A stretch of DNA of 64,000 nt from Escherichia coli O157 typing phage 15, in sequence record KP869113. The stretch is one strand, 5' to 3'. Shown piece by piece: positions 42 through 42,792 of the stretch (positions are counted from its first letter, which is position 1; the number at the start of each line of letters is the position of its first letter). Under the pieces are notes generated by a model. It was not told the DNA's origin. It saw only the letters and a list, made by a program, of their open reading frames with translations, and did not search any database. The translations under genes were made by a program, and so were the position numbers.

Positions 42-117
42 TGGGGTGACCTACGGGATTTGAACCCGTATAGACCATGTTCACAGCATGGGTCATTACC
101 ATTTATGATAAGGCCAC
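42..117 (-). tRNA. tRNA-His (anticodon GTG), CCA encoded
   Basis: T-arm acggg/atttgaa/cccgt on plus strand; anticodon stem ccatg/catgg with loop ttcacag (codon CAC); acceptor 7 bp. Confidence 0.65.
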
Positions 118-148
118 ATTTAAGGACTCTCGTAAGAATCCTTAGAAG

Positions 149-224
149 TGGCAGCGGCATAAGGATTTGAACCTTAATAGGACAGCTTCAGAGACTGCTG
201 CATTGCCAGTTATGCTATACCGCT
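149..224 (-). tRNA. tRNA-Gln (anticodon CTG), CCA encoded
   Basis: T-arm taagg/atttgaa/cctta; anticodon loop ttcagag (codon CAG); acceptor agcggta/tgccgct. Confidence 0.6.
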
Positions 225-229
225 AAATT

Positions 230-309
230 TGGTACTCCATATCGGATTCGAACCGATACATAACACAGATTTTAAGTCTGGCCTCTCTGCCAATTGGAGT
301 AATGGAGCA
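230..309 (-). tRNA. tRNA with anticodon TAA (Leu-type anticodon, short variable arm)
   Basis: T-arm atcgg/attcgaa/ccgat; anticodon stem caga/tctg with loop ttttaag (codon TTA); CCA encoded; D-arm short. Confidence 0.5.
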
Positions 310-310
310 T

Positions 311-386
311 TGGCGGGGGATGTTGGAATTGAACCAACTTCTTCGATTTCAAAGACCGAGGTTTTAACCTTGTAAACTAATCCCCT
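311..386 (-). tRNA. tRNA-Gln (anticodon TTG), CCA encoded
   Basis: T-arm gttgg/aattgaa/ccaac; anticodon loop ttcaaag (codon CAA); D-arm gttt/aaac. Confidence 0.55.
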
Positions 387-394
387 TTAAATCT

Positions 395-721
395 TTACTT
401 TCTTAGTGGATGAATAAAGAATGCCAACATAACTCTTTCCCTTGAAAATGCTCTTTCTTCTGGGACAACACTTTTAAGTTTCCACCCAACATAAATTCTC
501 CAGTAAAATTGTTTACCAAAGATTTTGATTGACGGCACAAAAGCGAATAATCCCCAAGCATTACTGTTCCACATTAGGAGATAACCAGTCTGATTATCTT
601 CAGGGTTAGAACTTACGTTGATATTACCTTTCCACTTAGTAACATCTTTTACATCTCTTCCTAATACATGGTAAGAGAAGTTATAAGCTTTGTTTCTCCA
701 GAGCCATCCAACTCTCTGCAT
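395..721 (-). CDS. hypothetical protein (N-terminus uncertain, abuts assembly gap)
   Basis: 108-aa ORF immediately 5' of the tRNA block; Trp/Tyr-rich; the N run starts 9 nt upstream of the listed start. Confidence 0.3.
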   Translation of the reverse strand: MQRVGWLWRNKAYNFSYHVLGRDVKDVTKWKGNINVSSNPEDNQTGYLLMWNSNAWGLFAFVPSIKIFGKQFYWRIYVGWKLKSVVPEERAFSRERVMLAFFIHPLRK

Positions 722-730
722 GTAGACACC

Positions 731-1450
731 NNNNNNNNNNNNNNNNNNNNNNNNNNNNNNNNNNNNNNNNNNNNNNNNNNNNNNNNNNNNNNNNNNNNNN
801 NNNNNNNNNNNNNNNNNNNNNNNNNNNNNNNNNNNNNNNNNNNNNNNNNNNNNNNNNNNNNNNNNNNNNNNNNNNNNNNNNNNNNNNNNNNNNNNNNNNN
901 NNNNNNNNNNNNNNNNNNNNNNNNNNNNNNNNNNNNNNNNNNNNNNNNNNNNNNNNNNNNNNNNNNNNNNNNNNNNNNNNNNNNNNNNNNNNNNNNNNNN
1001 NNNNNNNNNNNNNNNNNNNNNNNNNNNNNNNNNNNNNNNNNNNNNNNNNNNNNNNNNNNNNNNNNNNNNNNNNNNNNNNNNNNNNNNNNNNNNNNNNNNN
1101 NNNNNNNNNNNNNNNNNNNNNNNNNNNNNNNNNNNNNNNNNNNNNNNNNNNNNNNNNNNNNNNNNNNNNNNNNNNNNNNNNNNNNNNNNNNNNNNNNNNN
1201 NNNNNNNNNNNNNNNNNNNNNNNNNNNNNNNNNNNNNNNNNNNNNNNNNNNNNNNNNNNNNNNNNNNNNNNNNNNNNNNNNNNNNNNNNNNNNNNNNNNN
1301 NNNNNNNNNNNNNNNNNNNNNNNNNNNNNNNNNNNNNNNNNNNNNNNNNNNNNNNNNNNNNNNNNNNNNNNNNNNNNNNNNNNNNNNNNNNNNNNNNNNN
1401 NNNNNNNNNNNNNNNNNNNNNNNNNNNNNNNNNNNNNNNNNNNNNNNNNN
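731..1450. other. assembly gap (720 N)
   Basis: run of n; the X-filled ORFs across it are artefacts. Confidence 0.99.
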
Positions 1451-1520
1451 CTCACTAAAGGACTTGAACCTTTTTCTTCATCTTGTAAGGGTGATGTTTT
1501 ACCATATAAACTAAGCGAGT
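1451..1520 (-). tRNA. tRNA-Val (anticodon TAC), 3' end lost in gap
   Basis: T-arm aaagg/acttgaa/ccttt at 1457-1473; anticodon loop ttgtaag (codon GTA); D-arm gttt/aaac; acceptor agcgagt. Confidence 0.5.
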
Positions 1521-1616
1521 ATGAAAGAGGTCTGAAGTTGTGCCGCTAACTCAACTTCGTGGAATTTGTTACGGTCTTCAGTTGACTCAAAGCGGTCTTT
1601 CACTTGACCTCTGAAT

Positions 1617-1692
1617 TGGTGCTCCCACAAGGACTCGAACCCTGATAAGTTGCTTACAAGGCAACCGTAATAACCAATTATACGATAGGAGC
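1617..1692 (-). tRNA. tRNA-Thr (anticodon TGT), CCA encoded
   Basis: T-arm caagg/actcgaa/ccctg; anticodon stem gttgc/gcaac, loop ttacaag (codon ACA). Confidence 0.65.
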
Positions 1693-1699
1693 ATTAATT

Positions 1700-1774
1700 T
1701 GGAGCATCCAGAGGGAATCGAACCCTCAACCTCAGTTTGGAAGACTGTAATTTTCCCGTTTAAACTATGGATGC
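1700..1774 (-). tRNA. tRNA-Gly (anticodon TCC), CCA encoded
   Basis: T-arm gaggg/aatcgaa/ccctc; anticodon loop ttggaag (codon GGA); acceptor gcatcca/tggatgc perfect. Confidence 0.65.
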
Positions 1775-1780
1775 ACTAAT

Positions 1781-1856
1781 TGGTGGAGTCACTGAGAATT
1801 GAACTCAGTTCCCAAGTTTGCAAAACTCGAATTTTAACCATATAAACTATGACCCC
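1781..1856 (-). tRNA. tRNA-Ala (anticodon TGC), CCA encoded
   Basis: T-arm ctgag/aattgaa/ctcag; anticodon loop ttgcaaa (codon GCA). Confidence 0.6.
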
Positions 1857-1862
1857 ATTGTT

Positions 1863-1938
1863 TGGTACAGGTGGAGGGAATTGAACCCATCGTCTTACTG
1901 ATTAAGAGTCAGCCGCATAACCATTTTGCTACACCTGC
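1863..1938 (-). tRNA. tRNA-Lys (anticodon CTT), CCA encoded
   Basis: T-loop aattgaa flanked by ggg/ccc; anticodon stem actga/tcagc, loop ttaagag (codon AAG). Confidence 0.55.
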
Positions 1939-1945
1939 ATTAATT

Positions 1946-2022
1946 TGGTACACCTAGAGAGATTCGAACTCACACTGAGCAGATTCTAAGTCTGCTGCCT
2001 CTACCAGTTGGGCTATAGGTGC
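1946..2022 (-). tRNA. tRNA with anticodon TAG (Leu-type anticodon, short variable arm)
   Basis: T-loop attcgaa; perfect anticodon stem gcaga/tctgc with loop ttctaag (codon CTA); D-arm gcct/gggc; 77 nt including CCA. Confidence 0.55.
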
Positions 2023-2103
2023 ATTAAATCTTTTTAGAGAACTTCTAAGAACCTGAGCAACAAGGTTCCACAACAAGCGACTAATAACCTTAGAAGCCCT
2101 CTA

Positions 2104-2126
2104 AAAAGACCTAAATAGGTCTTTGC
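2104..2126 (-). terminator. rho-independent terminator-like hairpin
   Basis: aaagacc-taaatag-ggtcttt perfect 7-bp stem; on the minus strand the stem is followed by a T run. Confidence 0.4.
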
Positions 2127-2280
2127 ATAGTCTTGTTTAATCCGGTGACTAGAACCTTTGGAGAGCTTGATATTATCTCTTCTCCGTGACACCTACTAGG
2201 TGTTTTATCAGTGTGTACAACAATACACGCGGTATACCAAAGCAACATCCGAATGAAGCTTGGCTTTAAATCTTATTAGG

Positions 2281-2368
2281 CGGTAAGTAAAGGAGTCGAA
2301 CCCTCACCGTATCTCTACAGTGGCAACTGTTTTCAAGACAGTTTGGCTACCATTAGCCGCTACCTACC
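2281..2368 (-). tRNA. tRNA-Ser (anticodon TGA), class II long variable arm, no CCA
   Basis: T-loop agtcgaa; anticodon stem actgt/acagt with loop tttcaag (codon TCA); 88 nt; acceptor ggtaggt/acttacc. Confidence 0.6.
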
Positions 2369-2381
2369 CCTAATAAGACTG

Positions 2382-2786
2382 CTAAATACTTAACAGTCCT
2401 GCATGAACTTTCCTATGACAGTTTGAGCAAAGCACAACACACTTACGAACTTCACGCTTAATAGTTCCCCTAGAGTAAGTCTTAAGATTGCTTGGAGCAA
2501 AATCTTTCTCTTTAGGGTCTAAGTGATGAAAATCTAAAGCTACTGGCTCGGATTCACCACATATTCTGCATTTGCAAAACTTTTTATATCTACTAAGGAA
2601 CTCTCTGTTTCTCTTTTTGTCATATTTTGCTCTAACTTTCCTTTTTGCTTTATAAGTAGGGTCTTCTTTGTATCTCTTTGCTGAGTACTTAGCTTTACAA
2701 TCTTTGCAAGCAGACTGATAGCCATTCCCTCTTTTATGAAAGCAACTTAAAGGCTTCTCTTGAGAACATTTTCTACAAAGTTTCAT
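2382..2786 (-). CDS. HNH homing endonuclease
   Basis: 134-aa ORF; Cys-rich zinc-binding N-terminus and C-terminal DFHHLDP...CVVLCSNCHRKVH HNH motif; sits between tRNA genes. Confidence 0.75.
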   Translation of the reverse strand: MKLCRKCSQEKPLSCFHKRGNGYQSACKDCKAKYSAKRYKEDPTYKAKRKVRAKYDKKRNREFLSRYKKFCKCRICGESEPVALDFHHLDPKEKDFAPSNLKTYSRGTIKREVRKCVVLCSNCHRKVHAGLLSI

Positions 2787-2800
2787 ACAAGCACCTTTTC

Positions 2801-2871
2801 TGGCAGGGGTGTAGAGATTCGAACTCTAATCAAGAATTTTGGAGACTCTATTGCTGCCATAGCTCACCCCT
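2801..2871 (-). tRNA. tRNA-Trp (anticodon CCA), CCA encoded, short D-arm
   Basis: T-arm tagag/attcgaa/ctcta; anticodon loop tttggag (codon TGG); acceptor aggggtg/cacccct perfect. Confidence 0.55.
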
Positions 2872-3019
2872 ATTAAAACTATAATTCGAAGCTTACCGTA
2901 TTATCTCAACACTGTAAAGCCCCTTCTCAGATTATTTACATGTTCTGGAAAACATGAGATACAGACCACCTCCCTACAGGAAGACCCGCTTAGGTCGTCT
3001 AAGTAATCTGCTAACTAAT

Positions 3020-3096
3020 TGGCACACCCTACAGGATTCGAACCTGTAACTAACGATTTAGAAGACCGTTGCTCTATCCAATTGAACTAAGGGTGC
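3020..3096 (-). tRNA. tRNA-Arg (anticodon TCT), CCA encoded
   Basis: T-arm acagg/attcgaa/cctgt; anticodon loop ttagaag (codon AGA). Confidence 0.65.
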
Positions 3097-3361
3097 ATTA
3101 ACATTTTAAAGGGTACTCATTGCATTTAAGCCAAGCCCCATAAGGGATACCCTTTAGAATGTTGCCCACCTTATTAATCATACCGTGGGCTAGTACGCCA
3201 AATTCTTTGATGAGGGATTGGAAGACCTCACTGGTGTTTAGCCTATCAAGCTACTGCCAGAAAAACATTGTCGTTTGCATTTATTTTAAATTTGCAAAAT
3301 AGACGCTACGCAACGAAAACTAAGGTTACTATAAAGTAGTCACATCTCAATGTCAACAACT

Positions 3362-3437
3362 TTATTGAAATTGGTACTGGTAGGTGGAATCGAACCACCG
3401 ATGTTCCCTTATCAGGGGAGTGTTATAACCTTCTTAA
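3362..3437 (-). tRNA. tRNA-Ile (anticodon GAT), CCA encoded
   Basis: T-arm ggtgg/aatcgaa/ccacc; anticodon loop ttatcag (codon ATC). Confidence 0.6.
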
Positions 3438-3438
3438 C

Positions 3439-3515
3439 TATACCAGCTTGGAGGTTCAGATGGGAATCGAACCCACATTCATAGGGCTTATGAGACCCTT
3501 GCATTACCTTATCTG
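3439..3515 (-). tRNA. tRNA-Met (anticodon CAT), CCA encoded
   Basis: T-loop aatcgaa; anticodon stem agggc/accct, loop ttatgag (codon ATG); acceptor ggttcag/ctgaacc perfect. Confidence 0.6.
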
Positions 3516-3603
3516 CGACTGAACCAGAATAAGTACCCTAGTTAGAGAAACTGTTGAGTGGGTGTTTCCAGCCGCGCAGGTGTTTCTTAGTTAAGGGTGA
3601 ATT

Positions 3604-3679
3604 TGGTAGAAGTGGAGGGATTCGAACCCATCGCCTGTCAGATTAAAAGTCTGCCGCATCACCATTCTGCTACACTTCC
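3604..3679 (-). tRNA. tRNA-Lys (anticodon TTT), CCA encoded
   Basis: T-arm almost identical to the Lys-CTT gene; anticodon loop ttaaaag (codon AAA). Confidence 0.55.
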
Positions 3680-3684
3680 ATTAA

Positions 3685-3836
3685 ATTATCTTTGTAGATA
3701 AGCTACCCAGACTTGCTTAAGGTCTGTAGCGATGTGCCTTTTTGGGTTTAAATCTAGAATTTACCCTTTCACCCTTTGTGGTCGCATACTCACAGGTAAG
3801 CTTAATAACTTATCTACAAAGATAATTACCAGACCG
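3685..3836. repeat. perfect 18-bp inverted repeat (attatctttgtagataag / cttatctacaaagataat) enclosing about 116 nt
   Basis: read directly from sequence; arms at 3685-3702 and 3819-3836. Confidence 0.8.
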
Positions 3837-3964
3837 TTGTTTATCATCTTAAGTGCTACCATTACACCAACTCGACATCTGCCGAGTGAAGGAATCGAAC
3901 CTTCGCCTTTTCTTTACCGGAGAAATAGATTGTTTAAGTTTTGCTGTAAACGGTCTTCTGTAAA
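3837..3964 (-). ncRNA. structured RNA, family copy 1 (closing helix agaccgtt/aacggtct) with embedded tRNA-like T-arm
   Basis: conserved 5' box ttaccagacc and 3' box ttgctgtaaacggtcttctg; inside it gaagg/aatcgaa/ccttc T-arm plus gtg-taatggtag-cac D-arm-like hairpin, but no pairable acceptor 5' strand. Confidence 0.45.
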
Positions 3965-3971
3965 TTTGTTG

Positions 3972-4046
3972 AGCCAGACCAAGTTTTAAATTTTTCAAAA
4001 TTAAATTGGCTTGAAATTTTAAATAACTTGCTGTATTTGGTCTTCT
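3972..4046 (-). ncRNA. structured RNA, family copy 2 (closing helix agaccaa/ttggtct)
   Basis: same boxes (gccagaccaag ... ttgctgtatttggtcttctg); compensatory base changes in the helix relative to copy 1. Confidence 0.4.
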
Positions 4047-4106
4047 GCTCCTTTAAAGAATACTCGTAAGAACCCTTTAAGGGAGGGGCTAAATAGCCCT
4101 CTCAAA

Positions 4107-4184
4107 ATTGGCGGTTACGAAGGGATTTGAACCCTCATCATCTCCCGTGACAGGGGAGTATTTTAACCAAATTAAACTACATAA
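4107..4184 (-). tRNA. tRNA-Asp (anticodon GTC), CCA encoded
   Basis: T-loop atttgaa; perfect anticodon stem ctccc/gggag, loop gtgacag (codon GAC). Confidence 0.65.
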
Positions 4185-4189
4185 CCTTT

Positions 4190-4277
4190 ATTGGTGTGCC
4201 GTGTAGGAGTCGAACCTACCGAGTCTCAATGACAAGGGATTTACAGTCCCCACCGCTACCATCTACGGGATAACGAC
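4190..4277 (-). tRNA. tRNA-Tyr (anticodon GTA), class II long variable arm, CCA encoded
   Basis: T-arm gtagg/agtcgaa/cctac; anticodon stem ggga/tccc, loop tttacag (codon TAC); 88 nt. Confidence 0.6.
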
Positions 4278-4346
4278 ACATTTAATTTCTATTCAGGCTA
4301 AGGACTTGTACCTTACAAATCGGTGAGCAATCGCTTCTCTCCTAAA

Positions 4347-4423
4347 TTTGGCGGTTAGTCAGGGATTCGAACCCTGTGCCATTCGCTTAACAGGCGACCG
4401 CACATACCTTATGTGCTTCCTAA
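4347..4423 (-). tRNA. tRNA-Asn (anticodon GTT), CCA encoded
   Basis: T-arm caggg/attcgaa/ccctg; anticodon loop ttaacag (codon AAC). Confidence 0.6.
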
Positions 4424-4433
4424 CCATGTTTAG

Positions 4434-4503
4434 TATTACCAGACCGTATATTTCAATTTTTTCCGCTAAAAATTTAATAAATATTGCTGTAAACGGTCTT
4501 CTG
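4434..4503 (-). ncRNA. structured RNA, family copy 3 (closing helix agaccgt/acggtct, AT-rich loop)
   Basis: ttaccagaccgt ... ttgctgtaaacggtcttctg; no tRNA-like insert. Confidence 0.4.
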
Positions 4504-4509
4504 TAAATT

Positions 4510-4586
4510 TGGAGGCGGGTGCAGGAGTCGAACCTGCCGATACCATGCTAATGAGACATGTGAGACGCCCTTTCTCTATACCCGCA
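4510..4586 (-). tRNA. second CAT-anticodon tRNA (Met, fMet or Ile-lysidine type), CCA encoded
   Basis: T-arm gcagg/agtcgaa/cctgc; anticodon stem catgc/acatg, loop taatgag (codon ATG). Confidence 0.55.
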
Positions 4587-4605
4587 ATTCTTAATGACCA
4601 GACCA

Positions 4606-4672
4606 AATATCTTCTTTGTCCGATTAACTTTCAGATGAGTAGATTAAGTTTGCTGTAATTGGTCTTCTGTCA
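4606..4672 (-). ncRNA. structured RNA, family copy 4 (closing helix agaccaa/ttggtct)
   Basis: gaccagaccaaat ... ttgctgtaattggtcttctg; covaries with copies 1 and 3. Confidence 0.4.
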
Positions 4673-4677
4673 AAACT

Positions 4678-4755
4678 GGCGTTCCAGAAGGGATTTGAAC
4701 CCTCAAATATCCACTTTGAAAGAGTGGTGACTTTACCATTTTGTCTACTGGAACA
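4678..4755 (-). tRNA. tRNA-Glu (anticodon TTC), CCA encoded
   Basis: T-loop atttgaa; perfect anticodon stem ccact/agtgg, loop ttgaaag (codon GAA); acceptor gttccag/ctggaac perfect. Confidence 0.65.
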
Positions 4756-4762
4756 TTAATTT

Positions 4763-4842
4763 GGTCTCCGTTGAAGGATTTGAACCCTCGACCCCTTGCT
4801 CCCAAAGCAAGTGCTGCTAAACCAGACTGAGCTAAACGGAGA
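4763..4842 (-). tRNA. tRNA-Pro (anticodon TGG), CCA encoded
   Basis: T-loop atttgaa; perfect anticodon stem cttgc/gcaag, loop tcccaaa (codon CCA); acceptor ctccgtt/aacggag perfect. Confidence 0.65.
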
Positions 4843-38940: not shown

Positions 38941-39175
38941 TATTCACCTCTGCCATAAAATTCTGTAGCGTCCCAACAGGCTTTAGGTTTTGTCCATCAG
39001 TTTTCATGATGAATGGCATCTGACGAACTGGCATCTGTGCAATATCCATCAGGTCTGACAGTTCATAATCCTGCCCTAACATTCTCACAACATGGTCAAT
39101 ACCACGAGTTTTTGCAAAATTCTTTGCAGTCTCACACTGAGGGCATCCAGTTTTGGAGTAAATCACATAAGTCAT
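38933..39175 (-). CDS. glutaredoxin-like protein (NrdH-type)
   Basis: 80-aa ORF with CPQC redox motif; adjacent to nrdB. Confidence 0.65.
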   Translation of the reverse strand: MTYVIYSKTGCPQCETAKNFAKTRGIDHVVRMLGQDYELSDLMDIAQMPVRQMPFIMKTDGQNLKPVGTLQNFMAEVNNA

Positions 39176-40248
39176 TAAGGAACCTCTAAAAATCCACTAT
39201 TCAAATCATCTACAACAGTATTCAACAGGTACGCACCGTTCTGTTGCTCCTGATTAGCATTCTGCTCTTTATCAATTTCCATCTTCTTAATCATATACTT
39301 CAAAGGTGGTTCTTTAGGAGCTACAAAATCTCTGGGAATACCAAACATATCATACAGTGGGGCAGCATTATAGTAAACCCACTCATGAAGAAGTTTTGTA
39401 TTTAACCCAACTACAGCACGTCCTTCAGAGAAGATATAATACGACCATTTCTCTTCACTTTCAACTACTTCATCTAAGATTACTTTAATCTCTGGAAGAA
39501 TTTGTTGAAAAGCTTTCTGCCACTCATCATCTCTTAAAGTTTCTTTTAAAACTTCAATATCAATTTTAGTGTGAAGGATTTCGTCAAGCATAATTTTCTG
39601 GACAGCTTGAGCAATACCCTGAAATTTATCTTGAGCATCAAGTGCAAAAGTACATGCAAAGGATGCCATAAAAGATATACCTTCAAGTGCAGTCACTGCA
39701 AACAGCCCTTTCAGAATCACTTTATGGAAGTGTAAAGGGTCTTTGTCAAGAAGTGAATCACGGACATAACTCAGGCGATAGTTTATACCTTCATCCAGTA
39801 ATTCTTCAAGAACACGATTCACAGTTTTTAATCGGTCTTGTACAGCAACATTCTGGTTAATCTCATCTAAGATTGTTTCAGGGTTTTTAATACATTGCCT
39901 TACAATCTCTGAGTAAGTAAGAGCATGTAGGTTTTCAATCTCAGACTGCTTCATAATTGCAGTTGCATAGATGTCATCAGAGATGAATGGTGCAAAGGCG
40001 AATGCCAAGCTCTTAGCAACTTGGGTATCTGCTTCCCACTGCCACTTAAGAATCTCAAGCATTACACCTGACATTGATGCTGGCACACTCTCAAAATCAA
40101 GACGTGATTGTTCAAAAGGAAACTCATCTTCTGACCAGTCTTGCGCTTTTTGTTGTTTATATAGCTCAAAGATTTTTGGGTAGTGCTTATTAAGTGAGTC
40201 AAATGTCTTTCTCTCACCACCTAAAAAGATTGGGTGTTGGTTAATCAT
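39175..40248 (-). CDS. nrdB: ribonucleotide reductase class Ia small subunit
   Basis: ferritin-like di-iron protein; start trimmed to MINQHPIF so it abuts the upstream gene. Confidence 0.75.
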   Translation of the reverse strand: MINQHPIFLGGERKTFDSLNKHYPKIFELYKQQKAQDWSEDEFPFEQSRLDFESVPASMSGVMLEILKWQWEADTQVAKSLAFAFAPFISDDIYATAIMKQSEIENLHALTYSEIVRQCIKNPETILDEINQNVAVQDRLKTVNRVLEELLDEGINYRLSYVRDSLLDKDPLHFHKVILKGLFAVTALEGISFMASFACTFALDAQDKFQGIAQAVQKIMLDEILHTKIDIEVLKETLRDDEWQKAFQQILPEIKVILDEVVESEEKWSYYIFSEGRAVVGLNTKLLHEWVYYNAAPLYDMFGIPRDFVAPKEPPLKYMIKKMEIDKEQNANQEQQNGAYLLNTVVDDLNSGFLEVP

Positions 40249-40586
40249 AGTGTGATTTCTCCTTTCTTTATCATTTCTAAGGCTTGTTTTCGGTCTAGAA
40301 CTTCCCAATTTTCTTCATTGAACATTTCATATGGTCTTGCATAGATTTTACCATCTGCTGTAGAGATGTATGACACACCATCAACCCATGAGTCATCATT
40401 TTGTTTTATCATCATATCTGTGCTACTTACATAGTACAACGTTTTCCGAGGTTTGTAGAGCAGATAAATTGGCCACTCATGATTTGCTATTAAGTCCTTC
40501 ATACTCTCTCCAAAGTTATTTTTAGAGGGTCTTTTACGACCCTCATAGTTGTTAAAACTAAACACCGCAGCCCTCGCAATAAGCAT
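40245..40586 (-). CDS. hypothetical protein between nrdA and nrdB
   Basis: 113-aa ORF. Confidence 0.4.
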   Translation of the reverse strand: MLIARAAVFSFNNYEGRKRPSKNNFGESMKDLIANHEWPIYLLYKPRKTLYYVSSTDMMIKQNDDSWVDGVSYISTADGKIYARPYEMFNEENWEVLDRKQALEMIKKGEITL

Positions 40587-42792
40587 CTTGCAGTGCAGAT
40601 TTACCTACACCAATGCGACTGTTAAGGTAGTACATGGTTTTCATACCTACCGAGTTGGCATAAATCATGTACTTCAGAGCTTGAGCCAATGATACCTTCT
40701 TAGACTTTGCATAGTCAACATAGAAGTCTGAAGAGATAGCTTGACCAGTGAACTTTTGAACAATTGCATAACAATCAATCATATCAAAGGTGTCAATATC
40801 CCAAGCAATTTCATAGACATACTTCAACTCTTCATAATCTGGAACAATAAACAGTACGTTACCAGTTGCAGACTTTTTAGTTAAAATAAAGTCACGAATT
40901 GGGTACAAGCCATTTGTCGTATTAGTTGCTAGTGAAGAACTCTCATTAGGCATGTAAGCTTCTAATACAGAGTTTCGGATTCCACCATTCTCTTTGATAC
41001 GTTGTGCTAAGTCATCCCAATCATATCGTAGTTTCGCATCATGCTTTTCATCAATCTTCTTGTTAGCTGTCTTTGGAGGAACCCACCCTTCAGGATACTT
41101 AGTGAACTTCATATACTCAGGTACACCACGTTCTTTAGCAAGTCTCAAAGAAGCTTCGTGTAAGTAGTAAGAGTGCATTTCAGCAAGCTCATGAAGCTTC
41201 GTCTTACCTGCTCTTGAAGAATAGTTCACGTAGTTCTTCGCAAGGTAATGAGCCACATTTGTAAGGCCAATCCCAACAGAACGACGCTTCTGAACATGGT
41301 TACGCATCGACGGATACGGATAATCCATAAGGTCAATAACGGAGTCAACCATTGCAAGAGCATAATAAGCAACGTCAGCGTATTCATCTTCTGAAATTCT
41401 CCCTGCAACCAAACTAGCTAGGAAGCAAAGAGCTACCTCACCATCCTCTTTCACAGCATCGTCTCTGTAAAGGTCTGTCTCTTTCTCAAAACCATACACT
41501 GGCAATACAATTTCCATACAAAGATTTGACATCTTCAATGGTTCTTTAAATGGTGTATGTGTGTTTGCATTGTTAGTGAAGAATGGATACACACGACCTG
41601 TAGCATAACGCTGTTGAATAAACAGCTTAGCAATTTCACGAGCCTTGACTCGTCTGTGTTTAACACCTGAATGTACTGCATGACCAACTGCCATAGCAAA
41701 CTCATCAGCAGATGCTGTGTAGAACATGTCATAGAGTTTTGGTGCATCTTTGTAAGAGAATAGCAACCAATCTGTATCATACTGAACACACTGCCAGAAA
41801 TAATCGTTTGTACCGAATGAGTAGTCCATCTCATTAATACGTTTAGAAGGAACCGTTGTAGGGTGCTTCAAACGCAGTAAATCTTCAATCTGCGGGTCTA
41901 GAGCAGTGTAGAAGTTATTAGCTGAACCACCACGACTCTTCTGTTTGTTTGCCTCTACAGATGAACGTACAAGCTTGTAATAAGGTAGCTTACCCATGTG
42001 CTCAATCGTATTTTGACGGATACCATCACCAATAGTGCGAGTCTCCATCAGCATACCAATACCAGCTTGCTTTGTAGTCATATCATAAGCAACCTTTGCA
42101 GCAATACCAAGTGATTCAGCAGTATCATTTGCCTTAATCAAACAGCATGACGCATAGCCTGATTTAGTTGCTCTTAAACCGTTTAAATAAGGCGTAGGAG
42201 CGTTAATCTTCAGGTCAGATAGGTAAGTGTACAGCTTGATAACATCTTGTAGTCTACGGTGCTTTGGTTGCTTCTCAAAGGCTTTCATAGCCATGCCCAT
42301 AAACATAAATTGTGGTGACTCAAAAAGTCTTCCAGTTTTAATATCACGGATACCATACTTGTCTCTGAACTGTTTCAATACTGCATAGCCGTAAGAGATA
42401 TCTTTTGAGTGTACGATGTAACCTTGCAGATATTCAAGCTCTTCCTGTGAATAATCCATCTTCTCCCAAAGTCCTGCTCTCTCCATATTTTTAACGAAGG
42501 TAATCAGCGTAGGAACCTTAGTAAAGCCTCCAAAGGCTTCTTTGTAGATAATACCCAGAAGTAGCCGTCCAGCCATATCTGAGTACTCTTGAGTTTGTTT
42601 ATCAACACAAACATCAATCATGGCTTGGTGCATCTCTTTTGTGGTGCAACCTTCATAGACACGTTTCATAGCTTCCATAGTGACTTCTGACCAGATAATT
42701 CCACGCTTGTCTGCCCATGATGCCCACTTATTCAGTCTTTCTGGGTCAAAGCTTACTACTGTGCCGTTTGATTTTTTAATTGTCTTAATCAT
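40558..42792 (-). CDS. nrdA: ribonucleotide reductase class Ia large subunit
   Basis: 744-aa ORF; N-terminal ATP-cone-like region, active-site NLCMEI block, C-terminal CEGCGV. Confidence 0.8.
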   Translation of the reverse strand: MIKTIKKSNGTVVSFDPERLNKWASWADKRGIIWSEVTMEAMKRVYEGCTTKEMHQAMIDVCVDKQTQEYSDMAGRLLLGIIYKEAFGGFTKVPTLITFVKNMERAGLWEKMDYSQEELEYLQGYIVHSKDISYGYAVLKQFRDKYGIRDIKTGRLFESPQFMFMGMAMKAFEKQPKHRRLQDVIKLYTYLSDLKINAPTPYLNGLRATKSGYASCCLIKANDTAESLGIAAKVAYDMTTKQAGIGMLMETRTIGDGIRQNTIEHMGKLPYYKLVRSSVEANKQKSRGGSANNFYTALDPQIEDLLRLKHPTTVPSKRINEMDYSFGTNDYFWQCVQYDTDWLLFSYKDAPKLYDMFYTASADEFAMAVGHAVHSGVKHRRVKAREIAKLFIQQRYATGRVYPFFTNNANTHTPFKEPLKMSNLCMEIVLPVYGFEKETDLYRDDAVKEDGEVALCFLASLVAGRISEDEYADVAYYALAMVDSVIDLMDYPYPSMRNHVQKRRSVGIGLTNVAHYLAKNYVNYSSRAGKTKLHELAEMHSYYLHEASLRLAKERGVPEYMKFTKYPEGWVPPKTANKKIDEKHDAKLRYDWDDLAQRIKENGGIRNSVLEAYMPNESSSLATNTTNGLYPIRDFILTKKSATGNVLFIVPDYEELKYVYEIAWDIDTFDMIDCYAIVQKFTGQAISSDFYVDYAKSKKVSLAQALKYMIYANSVGMKTMYYLNSRIGVGKSALQDAYCEGCGV

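Follow-up and report, generated by a model that had tools for sequence, protein, structure and literature searches.

Leucine tRNA genes of type I shape in an Escherichia coli O157 typing phage and their short counterparts in other phages

Bacterial tRNA-Leu is treated as class II, with a long variable arm, both in textbooks and in the recent primary literature, and the bacterial exception that has been studied, in Streptomyces, is reported to need a special leucyl-tRNA synthetase (LeuRS), the E. coli enzyme being unable to charge it. Streptomyces coelicolor tRNA-Leu(CAA) is the one natural bacterial type I tRNA-Leu that has been assayed for charging, and the S. coelicolor enzyme (ScoLeuRS) was said to be alone among prokaryotic LeuRS in charging both types (PMC6614811). 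The sole precedent that we found in the full-text literature for what is described below is one sentence on a tRNA-Leu(TAG) with a short variable loop in a horizontally acquired, HNH-bearing cluster of Mycobacterium mucogenicum (PMC6582537); we found there neither type I tRNA-Leu as a general phage trait nor data on its charging. Here we examined two tRNA-Leu genes, with anticodons UAA and UAG, in a stretch of 64,000 nucleotides (nt) from Escherichia coli O157 typing phage 15 (record KP869113), which we refer to as the window. Both have type I shape and, judging from sequence comparisons, we consider it probable, at roughly 85%, that both are functional leucine tRNAs that would be charged by host LeuRS.

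ARAGORN called tRNA-Leu(UAA) at 79 nt and tRNA-Leu(UAG) at 77 nt, each including an encoded CCA (coordinates are collected in Table 1). The original prediction, which had read Leu anticodons TAA and TAG, short variable regions and a class I shape from the letters alone, had placed the genes at 230–309 and 1946–2022; the second extent stood, and the first was one base too long, as the gene ends at 308. Both genes have a 7-base-pair (bp) acceptor stem, a 3-bp D stem, an 11-nt D loop, a 7-nt anticodon loop and a 5-bp T stem, and they share G1.U72, C2-G71, U8, A9, A73 and the T loop UUCGAAU. In tRNA-Leu(UAA) the D stem consists of C10-G25, U11-A24 and C12-G23, the D loop is CAAUUGGCAGA, the anticodon loop is CUUAAAA, and the 7-nt variable loop, GUUAUGU, has U48 as its last base. 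In tRNA-Leu(UAG) the D stem likewise includes C12-G23, the D loop is CAACUGGUAGA, the anticodon loop is CUUAGAA, with A and not G at position 37, and the variable loop, UCAGU, again ends in U48 and measures 4–5 nt, ARAGORN counting 4 when it pairs A26-U44.

Infernal, used independently, placed the anticodons and the short variable regions of both genes as ARAGORN did, with matches to Rfam RF00005 across model positions 1–71 of 71 (47.5 bits, E 6.6e-10, for tRNA-Leu(UAA); 57.3 bits, E 1.3e-12, for tRNA-Leu(UAG)). Both genes therefore belong to this family as defined by a complete cloverleaf, a 7-nt anticodon loop and a score above the gathering score of 29 bits. The concurring folds ruled out a hidden long arm or a shifted anticodon, so that the suspicion of genes “mis-folded by eye” was not borne out, and the anticodons, the short variable regions (7 and 4–5 nt) and the class I shape were upheld. 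Neither gene has a variable arm of more than 10 nt with a stem, as class II requires; both combine a Leu anticodon and a short variable loop with a class I core (A9, C12-G23). The long variable arm that had also been attributed to the Ser and Tyr genes of the same cluster is indeed present, at gene lengths of 90 and 88 nt, as a paired extra arm in each.

We next turn to the elements by which E. coli LeuRS recognizes its substrates. The reviewed determinants are A73, A15:U48, G18G19, A20a, U8:A14 and the elbow pairs G18:U55, G19:C56 and U54:A58, with C2-G71 acting as an antideterminant against seryl-tRNA synthetase (SerRS); the enzyme needs neither the anticodon nor the long variable arm, and tRNA-Leu variants that lack both the long arm and the anticodon arm stay active with it (PMC9976931). 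Alignment showed this full determinant set in both window genes: U8:A14, A15:U48, G18G19, A20a and the T-loop bases U54, U55, C56 and A58 are all present, A73, followed by CCA, is invariant in the alignment with the comparator tRNAs, and C2-G71 accompanies a Leu anticodon (NAA/NAG, with A35). The D loops, C-AAUUGGCAG-A and C-AACUGGUAG-A, follow the consensus CAAYUGGYAGA and stand in the same register as those of the fetched and aligned E. coli leuZ and leuW. No rival identity signal was seen in either gene (no G3.U70, and no long arm of the kind used by SerRS or tyrosyl-tRNA synthetase, TyrRS). Under the identity rules, UAA and UAG anticodons are used by no anticodon-reading synthetase. In the related Ounavirinae phage Sf14, which has three tRNA-Leu with the same three anticodons as here, the tRNAscan-SE isotype models scored all three best as Leu (TAG 67.4, CAA 49.1, TAA 60.2; PMC12482277).

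To determine what the cognate codons mean, we set the window's NrdA and NrdB against their E. coli counterparts in an alignment and counted which E. coli residue faced each Leu codon. Leu stood opposite 8/17 TTA codons and 6/11 CTA codons, compared with 8/33 for CTT and 7/18 for CTG, and the broader set L/I/V/M/F stood opposite 13/17, 9/11, 18/33 and 14/18, respectively. Because TTA and CTA aligned with Leu or L/I/V/M/F at least as often as CTT and CTG did, both codons mean leucine in this phage. The test is small (17 TTA and 11 CTA sites), and host tRNAs also decode TTA and CTA; it excludes an altered codon meaning without proving the charging of these particular tRNAs. A suppressor or recoding tRNA was rejected as a candidate, since the UAA and UAG anticodons pair with the sense codons UUA and CUA and with no stop codon, and we saw no sign of recoding. 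The suggestion that the genes might be “unusual decoders” thus gave way to a full E. coli Leu identity set and to codons that align with Leu. Among the Leu codons of 58 window open reading frames (ORFs), TTA accounts for 24%, CTT for 27% and CTA for 10%, and the window has a G+C content of 38.6%. Leu codon use in E. coli is strongly CUG-biased, and because the phage is AT-rich and the host CUG-biased, the anticodons UAA, CAA and UAG cover the Leu codons that the phage overuses.

Window bases 1–730 match E. coli O157 typing phage 1 (KP869100, genus Felixounavirus) at 100% identity, and BLAST gave hits in over 250 Felix O1-like phages with Escherichia, Salmonella, Shigella and Citrobacter as hosts. 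By these matches the window is a Felixounavirus genome and not a T5 relative, as the original prediction had implied; T5's own tRNA-Leu is class II. Both visible Leu genes are identical in KP869100. Among the matching phage records, 215/263 have the Leu(taa) gene at 99% identity or more, while the surrounding 730 bp reaches that level in 10/254, so that the gene is conserved above its flanks, consistent with purifying selection on the tRNA. Leu(taa) matched about 250 enterobacterial phage records and Leu(tag) only about 85, from Escherichia, Salmonella, Shigella and Citrobacter; because these counts differ, felixounavirus arrays seem not to have the same tRNA content in every isolate.

When the 77-nt Leu(tag) gene was used as a BLAST query, it gave nearly gap-free matches to annotated tRNA-Leu genes of very different phages. 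We fetched representatives and called their tRNAs with ARAGORN (Table 1); in each of them the Ser genes (84–95 nt) and the Tyr genes (86–88 nt) are all long. In Enterococcus phage Bop (2825–3648), the class II tRNA-Leu(taa) of 86 nt adjoins the type I tRNA-Leu(tag) of 76 nt, and the pair is followed by a phage-encoded transfer-messenger RNA (tmRNA) with the tag peptide AKNEELLAVA. For Lactobacillus phage LpeD the RefSeq record has no tRNA annotation at 460–3827, where ARAGORN called 15 tRNAs, including the three short Leu, a tRNA-Ile(tat) of 92 nt and a tRNA with a four-base anticodon (tttg).

To characterize the family we assembled a set of short viral tRNA-Leu with 178 unique sequences. Of these, 93% carry A73, 99% U48 and 94% U8, and 83% have a D stem of 3 bp; variable loops of 5, 4 and 7 nt occur in 132, 32 and 4 sequences, respectively. 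A73 also occurs in 49/55 of the sequences that do not match the search motif and are hence unconstrained by it. Each stem position is canonically paired in 89–100%, with 4–7 pair types nearly everywhere, which points to strong compensatory variation, with the caveat that ARAGORN folding itself favours pairing. We also compared the core between 47 short and 196 long tRNA-Leu in a pattern-selected sample. Position 9 is A in 37/47 short and G in 182/196 long sequences, position 12 is C in 38/47 and G in 181/196, and position 23 is G in 39/47 and C in 196/196. Both window genes have A9 with C12-G23, as opposed to the G9 with G12-C23 that is the norm in class II. Because these replacements lie outside the arm, the short tRNA-Leu have a coordinated class I core and are not simply class II tRNAs with the arm deleted.

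The window genes are closer to short tRNA-Leu of distant phages (69–82% identity, a comparison biased by the BLAST picking of those phage genes) than to host leuW and leuZ. Within the pattern-selected sample, the mean core identity is 0.53 among short viral tRNA-Leu and 0.51 between short and long ones, and the nearest neighbour of a short sequence is short in 26/36. As short-short identity is barely above short-long identity, the spread of one recent short gene was not supported, and the short tRNA-Leu look like a diverse class with no tight clade.

We then took a census of loci with the pattern TCGAACN{15,40}YTRAN10TCTRCCRRTT, in which the Leu D loop, a YAR anticodon and the T loop serve as anchors and the variable region is left open. 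It was run against IMG/VR and the GTDB species genomes, with the first 120 loci listed for each, and the proportions that follow hold only within these; the pattern demands one D-loop motif and UUCGA, so that E. coli-type UUCAA tRNAs are not matched. Gap lengths were bimodal, falling at 15–17 or at 22–30 nt with none at 18–21 nt. The short form made up 32/120 viral loci (27%) and 10/120 bacterial loci (8%), and by ARAGORN tRNA-Leu of at most 80 nt numbered 60/183 in the viral and 12/129 in the bacterial sample. In the first 120 viral contigs listed that were chosen for a short Leu, 180/199 Leu genes were at most 80 nt, while Ser was long in 73/74 and Tyr in 38/41; the arm loss is specific to Leu. 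Short ARAGORN tRNA-Tyr calls (72–80 nt) were also seen, 5/24 in the unbiased viral sample, and some phage tRNA-Tyr may be without the extra arm, or these calls may equally be artefacts of boundary or assignment.

The identified bacterial short cases among the listed matches were mostly Actinomycetota, with five single short tRNA-Leu(taa) genes in Nocardioides (two), Gordonia, Arcanobacterium and Herbiconiux, 75–76 nt long and with a mutual core identity of about 77%. Of the S. coelicolor isoacceptors, UAA (bldA) is reported to be type II and CAA to be type I, and the short isoacceptor appears to differ between actinobacterial lineages. One contig of a Planctomycetota metagenome-assembled genome carries three consecutive short tRNA-Leu at 3550–3912 (cag 77, taa 75, gag 75 nt), followed by a tRNA-Tyr call of 100 nt; this looks like a phage-type array within a bacterial contig.

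Taken as functional type I leucine tRNAs, the two window genes would be transcribed and processed by host enzymes and would presumably receive host base modifications. Host LeuRS would most likely leucylate both, reading A73 and the elbow of D loop and T loop (U8:A14, A15:U48, G18G19, A20a) and ignoring both the anticodon and the missing long arm. The UAA anticodon would then decode UUA and UUG, and the UAG anticodon CUA together with other CUN codons, which are the Leu codons used more by the AT-rich phage than by its CUG-biased host. The most economical reading of the arm loss is permissiveness: as LeuRS ignores the arm, Leu alone could turn into a compact class I form, which phage arrays would tolerate or favour. 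Because bacterial SerRS and TyrRS need their arms, arm loss would be possible only in Leu, and this fits the observation that Ser and Tyr stayed class II.

Several points weigh against functional leucine tRNAs charged by host LeuRS. Each gene has blemishes, namely a C27.U43 mismatch in tRNA-Leu(UAA), one U.U mismatch in the T stem of tRNA-Leu(UAG), and G1.U72 in both, which E. coli leuZ has too. Phage Leu(UAG) carries A37 where the host tRNA has G37 (m1G37), so that its maintenance of the reading frame may differ from that of the host tRNA. Fan et al. found that E. coli LeuRS failed to charge S. coelicolor tRNA-Leu(CAA), and that enzyme is described as charging type II only (Fan et al., 2019; PMC6614811). 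The failure may be explained by C48 in the S. coelicolor tRNA, as E. coli LeuRS requires U48 with A15. The stem mismatches were also the basis for considering that the genes are decaying pseudo-tRNAs, or uncharged decoys without a decoding role, as phage arrays do hold degenerate members, such as the 71-nt tRNA-Trp at 2801–2871 in the window (33 bits). We find this improbable, given full-length Rfam matches well over threshold, intact CCA and A73, and a Leu(taa) gene that is near-invariant in more than 200 phage genomes despite diverging flanks. The same mismatches moreover recur as minor states of a family with strong compensatory variation (U.U at T-stem pair 4 in 12/178, C.U at 27-43 in 5/178). 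Charging with some amino acid besides leucine, or unusual decoding, is harder still to credit: bacteria do not typically combine a Leu anticodon with a class I shape, and the runner-up isotype scores of Sf14 Leu(TAG), Ile2 at 65.7 and Lys at 63.4, come near its Leu score (PMC12482277), but all Leu determinants are present with no rival signal, TTA and CTA fall opposite Leu or hydrophobic residues of E. coli NrdA and NrdB as often as the other Leu codons, and the anticodons pair with sense codons and not with stops.

A further explanation would extend functional leucine tRNAs charged by LeuRS and not replace them. The short form, with its 5-nt loop ending in U48, A9 and C12-G23, could be a maintained, phage-favoured architecture, selected to evade host factors that recognize class II tRNAs (nucleases, toxins, perhaps modification or turnover enzymes), so that Leu translation survives a defence response; this would be distinct from the known anticodon-loop mutations of phage tRNAs. 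Extra arms are targets elsewhere, as PtuAB of Septu and Retron-Eco7 cleaves the variable loop of tRNA-Tyr (PMC13096335, PMC12673091), MenT3 acts on the extra arm of tRNA-Ser, and a Salmonella prophage terminase fragments tRNA-Leu (PMC11610961). Because the gap lengths are bimodal, core changes accompany the arm loss, and viral loci have the short form more often than bacterial ones, a maintained alternative state is suggested rather than gradual erosion. However, no nuclease is known to target the extra arm of tRNA-Leu, and the Salmonella tRNase cuts the anticodon region of CAG isoacceptors (PMC11610961). A paper on bacterial Schlafen proteins, checked for type II tRNA cleavage, held nothing pertinent to the tRNA-Leu arm, and the paper on HepS and Gifsy-1 makes no mention of a Salmonella prophage tRNA-Leu allele that resists defence. 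Class II tRNA-Leu is retained in T4 and T5, both types are carried by Enterococcus phage Bop, Actinomycetota chromosomes hold a short tRNA-Leu as an apparently ordinary single gene, and the window holds nothing that bears on defence. We therefore consider selection for evasion unlikely.

Beyond the two Leu genes, the window's array shows 22 tRNA genes, and that of KP869100 has 26, among them a short tRNA-Leu(caa) of 78 nt as its third short Leu gene. The window array is interrupted by a masked run of N, which clips the 3′ end of tRNA-Val (1448–1521). The collinear stretch of KP869100 (6395–7367) contains two small ORFs, tRNA-Arg(acg) and the short tRNA-Leu(caa), and these genes probably lie hidden, and unreadable, under the masked gap. 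The gap is about 78 nt longer than the KP869100 stretch. Between tRNA-Ser and tRNA-Trp lies a Cys-rich ORF of 134 amino acids (2382–2786, minus strand) with an HNH-type motif (HHLDP...CSNCHRKVH), whose wV8 phage counterpart carries the annotation HNH endonuclease; homing endonucleases within tRNA arrays also occur in T4, T5, Streptomyces phage Elmer, crAss cr111_1 and LpeD. The adjacent tRNA-Trp(cca) (2801–2871, minus strand) is 71 nt long and has the lowest Rfam score of the array (33 bits) and a degenerate D arm, with a 6-nt loop without GG and a mismatched stem. Two weak sub-threshold Rfam matches in array spacers, a partial tRNA-like match at 3887–3937 (minus strand, 22 bits) and a “permuted tmRNA” match at 3246–3430 (minus strand, 29 bits, gathering score 47), may be due to chance or to remnants of tRNAs.

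Table 1. Location and supporting evidence of the window features, and short tRNA-Leu genes called in representative phages.
Feature	Location	Strand	Evidence
tRNA-Leu(UAA), type I shape	230..308	(-)	ARAGORN; Rfam tRNA 47.5 bits full length; alignment to E. coli tRNAs
tRNA-Leu(UAG), type I shape	1946..2022	(-)	ARAGORN; Rfam tRNA 57.3 bits full length; alignment to E. coli tRNAs
tRNA gene array, 22 tRNA genes visible including both Leu	42..4841	(-)	ARAGORN; Rfam; array also annotated in KP869100
tRNA-Ser(UGA), 90 nt, class II, paired extra arm; internal comparator	2279..2368	(-)	ARAGORN
tRNA-Tyr(GUA), 88 nt, class II, paired extra arm; internal comparator	4192..4279	(-)	ARAGORN
Masked run of N, 720 bases	731..1450	.	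sequence; KP869100 annotation and ARAGORN on KP869100
NrdA	40558-42792	(-)	aligned to E. coli NrdA
NrdB	39175-40308	(-)	aligned to E. coli NrdB
Mycobacterium Bixzunavirus tRNA-Leu: cag 76, gag 75, caa 74 nt			ARAGORN
Streptomyces phage Elmer tRNA-Leu: tag 76 nt, two copies			ARAGORN
Klebsiella Certrevirus tRNA-Leu: caa 77, tag 78 nt			ARAGORN
Pseudomonas phage tRNA-Leu: caa 77, tag 78 nt			ARAGORN
Enterococcus Schiekvirus tRNA-Leu: tag 76 nt and class II taa 86 nt			ARAGORN
Cyanophage P-RSM6 (Prochlorococcus) tRNA-Leu: taa 76 nt			ARAGORN
crAss-like phage tRNA-Leu: tag 78, taa 75 nt			ARAGORN
Aeromonas Demerecviridae phage tRNA-Leu: taa 77 nt			ARAGORN
Lactobacillus phage LpeD tRNA-Leu: tag 76, taa 77, caa 74 nt			ARAGORN

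For the window alone, the outcome is an ordinary one: it has two leucine tRNA genes whose annotation is correct. Hundreds of records already annotate these genes, and their architecture belongs to a kind that is known though seldom noticed. We see moderate interest in the breadth of the short form among phages, in the coordinated core change and in the question of charging by E. coli LeuRS. If functional, the phage type I tRNA-Leu must use the ordinary LeuRS of E. coli or Salmonella, which would make them a natural test of arm-independent recognition, and the survey suggests that a substantial share of phage tRNA-Leu genes are short, with the coordinated core change. This bears on annotation, as isotype models expect a long arm, on the interconversion of class I and class II cores, and on a possible role of tRNA shape as a target of phage-host conflict. 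If evasion were the true reason for the short form, it would amount to an architectural counter-defence, and it would follow that natural type I tRNA-Leu are charged by E. coli LeuRS, in conflict with the present view of that enzyme as charging type II alone.

The host isoacceptors with the same anticodons, E. coli leuZ (UAA, 87 nt) and leuW (UAG, 85 nt), share with the phage genes A73, U8:A14, A15:U48, the AAYYGGYAGA register of the D loop, the 3-bp D stem and C2-G71, as well as G1.U72 in the case of leuZ. They differ in their extra arm of 13–15 nt, in G9 with G12-C23 and in the T-loop sequence UUCAA, and outside the variable region their identity to the window genes is 55% (leuZ) and 64% (leuW). 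The anticodon loop of leuW is UUUAGGU, with G37 as m1G37 site, compared with CUUAGAA and A37 in phage Leu(UAG), and the same three anticodon-loop differences are listed in the Sf14 paper (PMC12482277). We also observed A37 in NAG-anticodon tRNA-Leu of T5 and in Streptomyces, Pseudomonas, Enterococcus and Lactobacillus phage genes.

S. coelicolor tRNA-Leu(CAA) resembles the phage form in being type I and in coexisting with class II tRNAs and a single LeuRS, and its variable loop of 5 nt is the minimum for good charging (PMC6614811). That loop, ACAGC, ends in C48, whereas U48 is found in 99% of the phage family; the S. coelicolor gene is chromosomal, and its product is charged by ScoLeuRS via the leucine-specific domain, with A73 no identity element there (PMC6614811). 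Engineered minimal E. coli tRNA-Leu are leucylated without the arm if A73 and the tertiary pairs between D and T loops are kept, as far as summarised in PMC9976931; these are laboratory constructs, whereas the phage genes are natural, their anticodon arm is normal and their 9/12-23 core is remodelled. The tRNA-Leu(UUR) of animal mitochondria also has a short variable loop, with A73 and A14 as identity elements (PMC9976931), but differs from the phage form in its dedicated mitochondrial LeuRS, its floppy structure and its unrelated sequence, and ScoLeuRS does not charge it (PMC6614811). The tRNA-Leu(TAG) of M. mucogenicum and M. phocaicum is likewise short and lies in an array that bears an HNH endonuclease and for which its authors suggested a phage origin (PMC6582537); it is known by mention only, whereas the phage family has here been compared for identity elements and distribution. 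Finally, the tRNA-Leu of T4 and T5 are phage-encoded, as here, and lie in arrays with homing endonucleases, and T5 Leu(UAG) shares A37, but at 87 nt (T4) and 85 nt (T5) they are class II, unlike the window genes. The short form may have gone unremarked so far because these classical coliphages show class II only.

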